NCBI GenBank assembly: GCA_964016885.1
Contig: OZ024742.1
Span: 279,248,001 to 279,312,000, forward strand
Direction of reading: 5' to 3'
DNA: 64,000 nucleotides
From: Eledone cirrhosa
Lineage: Eukaryota
Below are positions 1,229 to 18,500 of the stretch, piece after piece. Under the pieces are notes generated by a model. The model was given only the letters and a program-made list of their open reading frames with translations, was not told the origin of the DNA and made no database searches. The translations under genes were made by a program, and so were the position numbers. Numbering within the stretch: the first letter of the stretch is position 1; every line of letters begins with the position of its first letter.

Positions 1229-2460
1229 TTTATTTTTATTTTTAATATTTTTAATATTTTTATTTTTAATATTTTTTTGTTTTTTATTTTTTTATTTTTA
1301 ATATTTATTTGTTTTTTATTTTTTTATTTTTTTGTTTCTGATATTTTTATTGATATATTGATATCTGTTCTCTATTTATGCTTGAACGATAATCATGTAG
1401 AGTAAAGACAAGAATAGTATTGTTAAAATTAATGTAGACTCTATATATATTTGTGTGTATGTACACATATATGTATACTAGAATTTTTATAGCACAATGA
1501 GAATGTTTTCGTCTGAAATAGGAATTTGCAGAGTTGATCACGTAAATTCACATGGATGTCTATAGTATCGAATCTGGGAAAACCTTCTATTTAACTCAAC
1601 TCTGATATAAACCTAGGAATTTTAAACTAGACATATGATCATCATTATTTTTCACACATTATTGATACGTGTCTCATTCTGAATACTGATATTTACATTA
1701 TAATGCCTGATTTATACGAATTGATATTTTTACATTGATGAAACATAATGTTTTAAATCTGCCTCGTTTATGTCTGGATATTTTTCTTTTCTCTCTATGT
1801 AACGGCTGTTTTCTCTCCTAACCACATATATCTCTCTCTACATTAATACTAGAGCTAAATAAATAAATAAATAAATAAATAAATATATCATTGATACGTC
1901 ATTCAACTGGTGCCCAACTACCTATTTTCTTTCTCTCTATCTCTATCTATATCTATCTCTCTATATTTTCTCTCTCTCTCTCTCTTCTCTCTCTCTCTCT
2001 CTCTATCTATCTACCTCTGTGTTTTTTCCTCTCTCTATATATCTCTCTCTGTTTCTTTACATGAATTTCTTCTCTCTATCTATCTCTCTATATCTATCTC
2101 TCTCTATTTAGTTGCATGCATTTCTTCTTTTTCTTCGTTTTTTCTTTCTTTCTTTTTATAACTGTCCCTAATATTTTTCACTACCAAATCAACTTTTTAA
2201 ATTGAAGTTGAAGTTGAAAGGTATGTCAAATCTATCTATTTATAAGACTGTTTATATTGTATTTTGTCTGAAGAAGGCATAACATATTTTTAATATGATA
2301 TCCCTGAAATATATATAATGAAATAAATATGGTTTTATAAATATAGTTTCCATTTATTTAATATCGTAAATATACTCCAAATACTTGTTGAGTGCTTTTA
2401 TATCAGTTATAAATATTTACTCGTTGTAACCCAACAATTTAAATAAAACTTTGCATATAT
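1229..2460 (+). repeat. 5' pseudo-LTR of the PLE
   Basis: Direct repeat of 5070-6268 with only scattered differences. Confidence 0.92.
2260..2325 (+). ncRNA. Minimal type I hammerhead ribozyme in the 5' pLTR (family A)
   Basis: Stem I TATTTTGT/ATGAAATA, core CTGAAGA, stem II AGG...CCT, GAAA, then T-ATAT-ATA (self-complementary stem III, AUA site). Confidence 0.75.
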
Positions 2461-2503
2461 CTTGCTCCAATACTGTTGAGCGCTTTATATTATAACTGAA
2501 AAA

Positions 2504-4030
2504 ATGGAATTCTTTAAGATTTCTTCCTCTTTAAAAGACATACCTCTACCTAGAAACAAAGACTTTATTAAACAATTAATAGATAAATCTGACTCTTTTA
2601 TAAGGAGAATCAGGTGGCGGGCATTCCACTTTGATAAATCTAATATAAATGCAAATGTCTCGGACTTAGACAAAGTTTTCAAATCTAAAAGAAATCCACC
2701 CCCCAACAAACTTTTATCTGACTTTGAAAACGATATAATTTCTATCATACAAGGAGTCAAATTCAAGAGAAACTTCAAAGGCCAGGAATATCTGAAAGGC
2801 ATTAAGGATAATATTGAGAGCTTAGAGAAAACTGAGAAGATCTTGGTGAAATCTGACAAGACCAACAACCTCTATGGAGTGCAAAAAGACATGTATAATG
2901 GCCTCATACTGAAAGAACTGAGGAAAAAGTACAAGGTAGCAGATAAGGCCGAGCTTGAGAAAATGAATGTTGAGGCATCTTGTATAATGCATGAGTTGGA
3001 AATTGAGAACAGAACACAACCTTTCGTGCCCAGGAAACCGAAGATCAATATGAAAGATCACAAAAGAAATTTTGAAAATGACCTGCCAGTCAGATTGATT
3101 GCACCATCAAAATCGGACCTGGGTAAACTAAGCAAAAACATTCTAGACAGGGTGATACAGCAAATTAAAAACTTGAATTGTTTACCTAACTTGAGCTTGT
3201 GGAAGGGAACTGGAGAGGTTATTGAGTGGTTTAAAGAAATTAAATATAACAATAATAATAAGTTTATTCAACTAGATATTGCTAACTATTATTCATCTAT
3301 TACCCCTAATCTACTAAATAAGGCACTAAATTACGCATTCAAACATACAGACCTAACTAGCAATGAAATGCACATTATATTATCGGCTAGGAAAACATTG
3401 ATAGAATTTAATGACCAACTATGGACCAGAGCAGATAGAGATAACAATTTCGACATTACTATGGGATCATCCGACTCAGCTCAGGTAACTGACCTTGTGG
3501 GCCTATTTTTAATCAATTCGCTGCATAGGAAAATACCCGGTGCCACCGGAGGTTTATATAGAGATGACATGCTTTTACTTATTGAAAATAATAACTCTGA
3601 ACTAAATAGAAAAAGAAAACAAATTACACAATTTTTTAATTGCTTTAATCTAAAAATAGAAATTGAGAATAACCATAGAATAGTCAATTTCCTAGATGTA
3701 ACATTAAATCTCAACACATGTCTTCACTATCCATTTCACAAGTTGAATAAAAACTTAAACTATGTCAGCTTTAACTCTAACCACCCCAGATCTGTTAAAA
3801 ATACTATAGTAAACTCTGTTCAAAAACGTATCTCTAGAATCTCATCTAATAAAAAGATTTTCGACGAAAAAGCCCAGTATTACAATGAAGCGTTAGCTAG
3901 AGCAGGATATAGTGATAAAATTATGTACATAGATAATAATAGACAAACTAACCAAAATAACAACAATTTTAATTACGGCAACAACTTTAACAACTATAAT
4001 AGAAAGCATTACAATAATTCCAAAAGCTAA
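2504..4030 (+). CDS. PLE reverse transcriptase (N-terminal, RT and thumb regions), ended by a premature in-frame TAA
   Basis: N-terminal SLKDIPLP...FIRRIRWRAFHF; RT motifs KSDKTNN, VRLIAPSKSDLGK, LDIANYYSSI, FDITMGSSDSAQVTDLVG, GLYRDD, VNFLDVTLNL; SNHP. These match Naiad/Chlamys-type PLE RTs as I recall them. Confidence 0.9.
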   Translation: MEFFKISSSLKDIPLPRNKDFIKQLIDKSDSFIRRIRWRAFHFDKSNINANVSDLDKVFKSKRNPPPNKLLSDFENDIISIIQGVKFKRNFKGQEYLKGIKDNIESLEKTEKILVKSDKTNNLYGVQKDMYNGLILKELRKKYKVADKAELEKMNVEASCIMHELEIENRTQPFVPRKPKINMKDHKRNFENDLPVRLIAPSKSDLGKLSKNILDRVIQQIKNLNCLPNLSLWKGTGEVIEWFKEIKYNNNNKFIQLDIANYYSSITPNLLNKALNYAFKHTDLTSNEMHIILSARKTLIEFNDQLWTRADRDNNFDITMGSSDSAQVTDLVGLFLINSLHRKIPGATGGLYRDDMLLLIENNNSELNRKRKQITQFFNCFNLKIEIENNHRIVNFLDVTLNLNTCLHYPFHKLNKNLNYVSFNSNHPRSVKNTIVNSVQKRISRISSNKKIFDEKAQYYNEALARAGYSDKIMYIDNNRQTNQNNNNFNYGNNFNNYNRKHYNNSKS

Positions 4031-17600: not shown

Positions 17601-18104
17601 ATGGATGTATGCATATTTATATACATTGCTTCATAGCCCTTCCATCTTCAAAATTTCTATTGTTCTCTCCAATCTCGTCTTTCAAAATCAATTGAATTGC
17701 TTCACTCTCTTTAGGTCCTTTCTTTATAATTGTAATGTACACACACACATACACACACACATACACACACAAACACACACACCACATATATATATATATA
17801 TATATATAAGAATGGAAGAGGTAAAAACCGGTTAGACGATTACTACCAGAGTAAATACATAGGGCTGTAAAGTGGATAATATGAAAATTCAGGACGCTGA
17901 CGGCCGCGCTTCTCTCGTTTCAACGGCTAGATCCGAAAGAGGTCGCGAAATTTCATATATGATTTCATGTATGATGATTTCTCACGAACAGTTCTAGTCT
18001 TGTAGAAGCTCTTCTATGTTAAAACATATTTATATACACACACACACACACACATATATATATATATATATATATATATATATATATATATATATATATA
18101 TGTA

Positions 18105-18500
18105 TAGGTTATATTTAATTTGTTGGGATACAACAAGCAAAATATTTTTATAACTGATATAAAGTACTCAACAATTTATTGGAGTAAATATACAATATAT
18201 TAACAAATAGAAACTATATTTATAAAACCATATTTATTTCATTATACATATGTCAAGGGCCAACAAGGCCAGCTTTGGTGCGCTTTCATCAGATAAAATA
18301 TAATATATCTATCCAGCAGATTCCAACCAGAATGGTTGCATATTTTCAGGGTATGTCAATATTTATTTATAAAACTAACCTATATTATATTTTATCTGAT
18401 GAAAGCGCACCATTGTTTGCCTTGGTGGCCCTTGAAATATGTATAATGAAATAAATATGGTTTTATAAATATAGTTTCCATTTGTTAATATATTGTGTAT
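18105..18500. mobile_element. Fold-back module, family A (pLTR 3'-end derivative): arms ~18190-18306 and ~18381-18500
   Basis: The minus-strand left part matches pLTR ~2255-2445; the right arm matches ~2220-2370; (TA)n flanks. Confidence 0.88.
18388..18453 (+). ncRNA. Minimal hammerhead ribozyme (family A)
   Basis: TATTTTAT-CTGATGA-AAG...CTT-GAAAT-ATGT-ATA-ATGAAATA. Stem II AAG/CTT covaries with AGG/CCT in the pLTR. Confidence 0.8.

Follow-up and report, generated by a model that had tools for sequence, protein, structure and literature searches.

Probable minimal hammerhead ribozymes in the terminal repeats and truncated copies of a Penelope-like element from Eledone cirrhosa

Four short hammerhead motifs in a 64,000-nucleotide stretch of Eledone cirrhosa DNA (GCA_964016885.1, contig OZ024742.1, positions 279,248,001 to 279,312,000, forward strand; hereafter the window), animal DNA rich in microsatellites, raise the question of whether they are ribozymes maintained by a mobile element and how cleavage would serve it. 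We read them with good confidence as type I 'minimal' hammerhead ribozymes (min-HHRs) of Hydra-clade Penelope-like elements (PLEs), lying near the 3' ends of these elements and, as we infer, cutting slowly as double hammerheads between the pseudo-long terminal repeat (pLTR) copies of active source elements. The pattern of sequence change suggests that the motif has probably been kept by selection in its repeat family, here called family A. The motifs and an associated helix are as follows.

2260-2325, plus strand: hammerhead motif A1, type I, in the upstream pLTR; predicted cut after 2317 (AUA)
6068-6133, plus strand: hammerhead motif A2, type I, in the downstream pLTR; predicted cut after 6125
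10811-10877, plus strand: hammerhead motif A3, of another stem II subfamily; predicted cut after 10869
18388-18453, plus strand: hammerhead motif A4, belonging to a third subfamily by its stem II; predicted cut after 18445
10651-10717, minus strand: mirror hammerhead A3m, changed at core positions G8 and A13, likely dead
18235-18300, minus strand: mirror hammerhead A4m, changed at core position A14, likely dead
2237-2343, plus strand: possible distal helix prolonging stem I by about 12 bp (2237-2248 paired to 2332-2343), from minimum free energy folds

A first-pass annotation had placed four plus-strand copies at 2260, 6068, 10811 and 18388, and all were found there with stem I, CTGANGA and GAAA as it described; all four are intact, but it had overlooked the two core-mutated minus-strand copies (10651-10717 and 18235-18300). 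Moreover, A1 and A2 (spacing 3,808 nt) place a hammerhead ribozyme (HHR) in both pLTRs of one PLE and are the same letter for letter across 66 nt; they are therefore counted as one, and the four copies amount to three independent sequences. Each copy runs through stem I, CTGANGA, a stem II of 31-32 nt, GAAA, stem III, A and stem I', with the core (C3, U4, G5, A6, N7, G8, A9; G12, A13, A14, A15.1; U16.1, H17) intact in the four plus-strand copies, N7 being A, A, T and T in A1 to A4 and H17 being A. Stem I has 8 bp (TATTTTRT/ATGAAATA), including one or two G.U pairs, and a possible distal extension accompanies A2 and A4 as well as A1. Stem II consists of 3 bp, a C.C mismatch common to all copies and a further helix, and stem III is ATATRTAT, an 8-nt palindrome without a loop (ATATATAT/ATATGTAT). 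The three helices with an open stem I conform to the type I plan, stem III pairing only as an intermolecular duplex; at the level of secondary structure no canonical loop 1 or loop 2 could be recognised in family A.

A pairing descriptor, composed after the motifs had been seen, gave four matches in the window versus one match in 200 block-wise dinucleotide shuffles (mean 0.005). The Rfam hammerhead families gave no match to the whole window at the gathering score, nor to 2100-18600 at E<=10, and the exact family-A DNA pattern occurred 0 times in genome contigs and 0 times in metagenome contigs. A looser pattern returned 11 viral-contig loci, none of which passes the pairing descriptor, and these were set aside as chance.

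The element that carries A1 and A2 has the following parts.

1229-6268, plus strand: Penelope-like element with two pLTRs, a broken open reading frame (ORF) and (TA)n flanks
1229-2460, plus strand: upstream pLTR, a 5'-truncated tandem copy with (TA)n before it, matching 5070-6268 at 95% (blastn)
5070-6268, plus strand: downstream pLTR, running out into (TA)n
2504-4724, plus strand: broken ORF for a reverse transcriptase (RT) with C-terminal GIY-YIG, showing RWR, DKT, CxCX5C, CxxC and CxH motifs
2372-2460, plus strand: 'tail' lying between the two points at which family-A insertions stop on their 3' side, one about 53 nt and one about 140-150 nt beyond the predicted cut

The pLTRs differ by 13 substitutions per 1,192 aligned bases and by 6 gaps, the ORF has a stop at 4028-4030 and changes frame twice, near 4495 and near 4620, and the predicted A1 cut lies 186 nt upstream of the ATG. 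Judged from its motifs and homologues, the element is a Hydra-clade PLE. RWR represents the RWK-type N-terminal motif (RW[KR] in 87 of 92 long homologues), SDKTN carries DKT in place of DKG (DKT in 86 of 92 homologues), and the linker CNCRDRSKC (CxCX5C) precedes a C-terminal IIY...YVG, followed by CxxC and CxH. The GIY-to-YIG stretch holds one cysteine in the window ORF and none in P0002, and so lacks the CCHH pair; the GIY-YIG match on homologue P0116 (E 3.7e-4) is below the Pfam cut-off. The best named protein relatives of the ORF are from Argonauta hians (37-42%), and all four family-A insertions in the window have (TA)n as their target. RWK, DKT, CxCX5C, a C-terminal GIY-YIG without the two cysteines, CxxC, CxH and (TA)n are the marks of the Hydra clade in Craig et al. 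2021 (PMC8557442), which calls HHRs universal in the clade and tabulates them, a family from Octopus bimaculoides included.

The motif was then compared across 90 loci with RT relatives, 64 of which hold an HHR of the same plan. Among core-only candidates, for which pairing was not required, 56 of 105 pair in all three stems versus 0 of 409 in shuffles. At 15.2-16.2 the relative motifs have C-G, in 56 of 56 by one count and 69 of 70 by another; family A has U-A there, both sides having changed with pairing kept, which gives the loop-less (AU)4 palindrome. Stem II spans 31-32 nt in family A and 10-31 nt in the relatives. Pair 10.1-11.1 reads A-U, A-U and G.U in family A, and among 56 Hydra relatives G-C in 24, U.U in 23, G.U in 5 and A-U in 4; since only 24 of the 56 are G-C, G10.1-C11.1 is not strict for the clade. 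Among the loci themselves, L092 (2496 and 4983) carries a 31-nt stem II in both pLTRs, nearest to family A in size, with the usual C-G stem III. Thirteen loci (L089-L101) that encode these relatives are in bacterial assemblies, mostly metagenome-assembled genomes, and are most likely host contamination; in several of them HHRs occur both as direct and as inverted copies.

The first-pass annotation had further proposed that stem II differs completely among copies yet still pairs, and that this covariation supports function. The window alignment comprised five distinct rows, 21 pairs and 105 cells, and represents three independent lineages only, because A1 equals A2 and the mirror arms share a source with their partner arms. 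Pairing was retained in 90.5% of the 105 cells versus 33-58% with the partners slid. Both sides had changed in 6 of the 21 pairs, all of them in stem II (6 of its 9 pairs) and none in stems I and III, and the covariation score was reached by 0 of 500 shuffles, a control that ignores relatedness. In register, the proximal stem II pairs are AGG/CCT, AAG/CTT and GGA/TCT; the first two had been correctly recognised, whereas GTACTG/CAGTAC, given as the A3 stem, is out of register and forms the distal helix after the C.C mismatch, the homologous proximal pairs of A3 being GGA/TCT. Stem II covariation in the window is thus suggestive, and the claim that it supports function was overstated for three lineages, although partial independent support comes from the family elsewhere.

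For this, four public runs that contain the element (one study, at most two samples; none on record as RNA) supplied contigs that were aligned to 2150-2750; 40 of 80 variant rows were listed, unphased, with shares taken from run X1. The listed variants inside 2260-2325 occupy eight positions. N7 varies (A>T 53%, A>G 23%), the A.A mismatch varies on either side (27% and 17%), the stem II loop varies (55%), position 11.1 shows T>C at 19% (unphased with its pairing partner), the centre of stem III shows A>G at 37%, and two stem I positions alternate between U-A and U.G (43% and 14%). By class, variation affects 4 of 8 unpaired free positions and 4 of 46 stem positions, and 0 of 12 positions in the core (post hoc Fisher test among the variants listed, p 0.005), and the pair is kept in three of the four varied stem positions. 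In the distal stem I, G>A at 2246 (71%) turns a G.U into an A-U pair. Together with the swap at 15.2-16.2, these variants give partial independent support for a family-level constraint on the motif.

A3 and A4 each belong to one arm of a short, truncated copy of family A in head-to-head arrangement; the mirror arm holds a core-mutated hammerhead.

10603-11020, unstranded: head-to-head truncated family-A insertion in (TA)n, with one short arm and one arm with tail
18100-18498, unstranded: second head-to-head truncated insertion in (TA)n, with the tail on the minus arm
60546-60689, unstranded: third family-A insertion of the head-to-head kind, with its truncation downstream of the hammerhead and without HHR; one short and one long arm

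In all three palindromes the arms differ in reach, one stopping about 53 nt beyond the cut position and the other about 140-150 nt beyond it, a short/long arm pattern that matches the published 'tail at one end', with a longer tail; opposite-strand dual and solo min-HHRs have also been described (PMC4209133). All six HHR-bearing arms extend beyond the predicted cut, and five of them reach (TA)n, at +53, +54, +139, +143 and +150. In the public contigs, loose ends run into (TA)n behind 2374 and 2452, and none was found at 2317 among the loose ends listed. Since all six arms pass the cut, and 2317 is not among the loose ends listed, priming does not usually start from the cleaved end, and the cut site as priming site is ruled out for now. 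An earlier remark that the cut region resembles the (TA)n target was correct as to likeness, which is real (it reads (AU)4A), but the insertion ends map elsewhere than the cut. Read-through RNA of the palindromic copies is predicted to fold into a single long hairpin, with 296 of 323 bases paired in one and 266 of 321 in the other, and two of the four intact motifs lie in palindromes that, on this folding model, would bury them. The start of the tail (2375-2400) also carries an ACTC...GAGT motif, a possible hairpin, which recurs at the unit start before the ATG (2465-2490); the 10-nt word behind it is inverted between the two sites.

The short HHR-bearing copies might instead form a non-autonomous, self-multiplying family resembling retrozymes or short interspersed elements (SINEs) that needs cleavage, possibly in trans between transcripts, stems I and III being common to all subfamilies. 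The public contigs offer some grounds for this: summed depth in run X1 is 0.9-3.4 million over the HHR versus 4-11 thousand over the ORF start, about 100-fold higher, and 80-94 contigs per run (X1-X3), matching from 2305 onward, carry other stem II sequences, while animal retrozymes are reported to be pLTR-derived (bioRxiv 10.64898/2026.07.22.740005). Depth is no copy number, however, and plain 5' truncation would give an equal shape and explains the 3' excess; furthermore, the short copies in the window are inverted pairs rather than the head-to-tail tandem units that mark retrozymes, their read-through RNA would be a long hairpin, and the cores are likely dead in two of the four palindrome arms. 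We consider this explanation unlikely.

To return to min-HHRs acting as dimers, the stem III 8-mer forms no hairpin, and its self-duplex of 8 bp or 6 bp is worth -3.2 or -2.2 kcal/mol. The active monomer fold costs 4.3-5.1 kcal/mol and the active fold never equals the predicted minimum, while the double hammerhead, folded without flanks, is more stable than the monomer minimum by 0.7-2.0 kcal/mol for each ribozyme and gains little or nothing when flanks are added. According to published work, cleavage by min-HHRs is weak, dimer-dependent and poor in vitro (PMC4209133; review PMC6765202), and cleavage can be protein-assisted, with uncleaved RNA as template (PMC11167929). Slow double-hammerhead cleavage is inferred because the fold energies agree with these reports. 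The motifs had earlier been identified as minimal hammerheads of the PLE type whose stem III is palindromic and suited to dimers; the published descriptions, the HHRs of the relatives and the duplex-forming stem III support this. In a transcript of a source element spanning both pLTRs, two motifs would swap strands to form a double hammerhead with an 8-bp stem III, which would cut slowly, probably with the help of the element's own protein, and trim or circularise the RNA. Reverse transcription would begin at either of two sites downstream of the motif, and new copies would therefore receive all of it, uncleaved. Variation that keeps the pairing would then be a record of selection in source lineages, and the window copies would mostly be passengers, given the broken ORF and the palindromic setting of the short copies.

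Several results weigh against this interpretation. The double hammerhead lies 1.5-8.1 kcal/mol above the dimer minimum, or 4.3-15 kcal/mol with flanks, folding z-scores of -1.4 to +1.9 show no excess stability and thus lend the fold no thermodynamic support, and the stem I probability in the monomer ensemble is 0-0.35. The number of pairs changed on both sides in the window alignment was reached by 55 of 500 shuffles, and with three lineages kinship alone could beat the shuffles. The variants share the narrow origin, the partial listing and the missing phase given above. G10.1-C11.1 and the unpaired 9.1 base, the usual marks of min-HHRs, are absent from the window copies. Concerning the clade assignment, which draws on motifs and homologues, Pfam gave no match to two ORF pieces at E<=0.1, and a search of PDB sequences with an alignment gave none at E<=1, so that neither returned an RT match.

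The energetics are also compatible with a fold that has been conserved after useful catalysis was lost, as a protein-binding or folding element beside the RT start sites; the weak AU-only stem III, with a duplex of merely -2.2 to -3.2 kcal/mol, and the R10.1-U11.1 pair would then reflect a relaxed catalytic demand. Such a state would fit an active fold that is never the predicted minimum, the poor in-vitro cleavage of min-HHRs (PMC4209133), and the one PLE tested, in which HHR mutants had no effect on in-vitro insertion (PMC11167929). It sits badly with the 12 core positions, none of which varies among the variants listed while N7 varies freely, with the change of 15.2-16.2 on both sides with pairing retained, and with A-U and G-U at 10.1-11.1 in 9 of 56 relatives, and we regard it as unlikely. 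It is a longer shot still that family A rebuilt a dimerising stem III from its target repeat, (AU)4 taking the place of the palindrome closed by C-G in the clade. In that case the junction, or a cleaved 3' end terminating in AUAUAUAUA, could pair with nicked (TA)n or with (AU)n in read-through RNA of the many copies, so that cleavage would be coupled to engagement of the target; if so, the short and the long end of every palindromic insertion would reflect two primings by a single dimeric complex. A chance match within AT-rich repeat DNA, for which the missing Rfam match, the nearly pure A/T stems I and III and the lack of excess folding energy might speak, has practically no probability left and is rejected by the descriptor shuffles, the core-only pairing count, the right place and strand within a PLE and the same plan in the relatives.

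In the one in-vitro system, PLE hammerheads are dispensable for insertion. A high-copy family with a seemingly fixed core and a changing stem II would suit the measurement of selection on a ribozyme. The AU-only stem III widens the descriptor for PLE HHRs and does not make a new kind of system; the kind is already described in the Hydra clade, and stem III is modestly unusual.

Other sequences in the window were recorded alongside. A word resembling a 5' splice site (G/GTATGTCA) lies 17-40 nt upstream of the family-A HHRs (2219-2227, 6027-6035, 10792-10800 and 18349-18357), present despite differing flanks; it is found within 80 nt in 1 of 56 relative HHRs. If this candidate site were used, the HHR would lie inside an intron of the 5' untranslated region. 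The same word occurs at 9472-9480, upstream of a second HHR family at 9778-9870 (plus strand) and 10225-10250, which has CTGATGA, a 50-nt stem II (6 bp, an internal loop and 12 bp), GAAA and a stem III ACCGTTCGGT with the clade-typical C-G, with a predicted cut after A at about 9858, one stem I mismatch and A.C at 10.1-11.1. The adjoining tandem copy lacks the 5' half, and no ORF was found beside this family. Short fold-back elements beside (TA)n at 9000-9250 and 18720-19470 are unrelated to family A (blastn), tRNA-like matches at 51734-51798 (minus strand) and 52023-52087 (plus strand), head-to-head, are likely tRNA-derived SINE heads, and decayed sequence at 11600-13700 (minus strand) resembles, as judged by eye, a remnant of an RT of the long interspersed element type.

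A literature search, with subscription journals, Repbase and Dfam outside its reach, found nothing on family A, and the element was compared with the nearest described systems. Hydra-clade PLEs (Craig et al. 2021, PMC8557442; Hydra-1_Obim, Penelope-n_HM, Hydra-1_Amil) share the C-terminal GIY-YIG, RW[KR], DKT, CxCX5C, CxxC and CxH, the (TA)n target, a type I HHR near the 3' end with a palindromic stem III, a frequent U before GAAA, inverted truncated copies and a tail at one end. Family A differs from the published elements in its stem III (8 nt of A/U, loop-less, with U15.2-A16.2, versus C-G in 26 of 26 Hydra rows of File S2), stem II (31-32 nt with the fixed C.C mismatch versus about 10-26 nt in published Hydra rows), unit (3.8 kb versus generally <3 kb) and tail (about 90 versus 30-40 nt), and the HHR of Hydra-1_Obim (Octopus bimaculoides), compared by eye, has a different sequence. 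The min-HHRs of Cervera and de la Pena (2014, PMC4209133) are alike in being type I without a real loop 3, with a palindromic stem III, an enlarged helix II, a pLTR location about 3 kb apart and high within-genome variability, and in that some stand alone or form pairs on opposite strands, 100-700 bp from each other; the window copies, by contrast, lack both G10.1-C11.1 and the unpaired base between 9 and 10.1, and have a longer stem I, of 8 bp and possibly a distal helix as well. Non-LTR retrozymes (PMC7229834; bioRxiv 10.64898/2026.07.22.740005) likewise have type I HHRs, pLTR derivation and many short copies, but as head-to-tail tandem units versus single head-to-head insertions here. Finally, PAc (Poseidon, Anolis; Frangieh et al. 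2024, PMC11167929) belongs to another clade, and its cut lies 26 nt inside the ORF versus 186 nt upstream of the ATG here, whereas its HHR upstream of two tail-defining 3' end points, its AT-rich target and its copies that include the uncleaved HHR are all as in family A.

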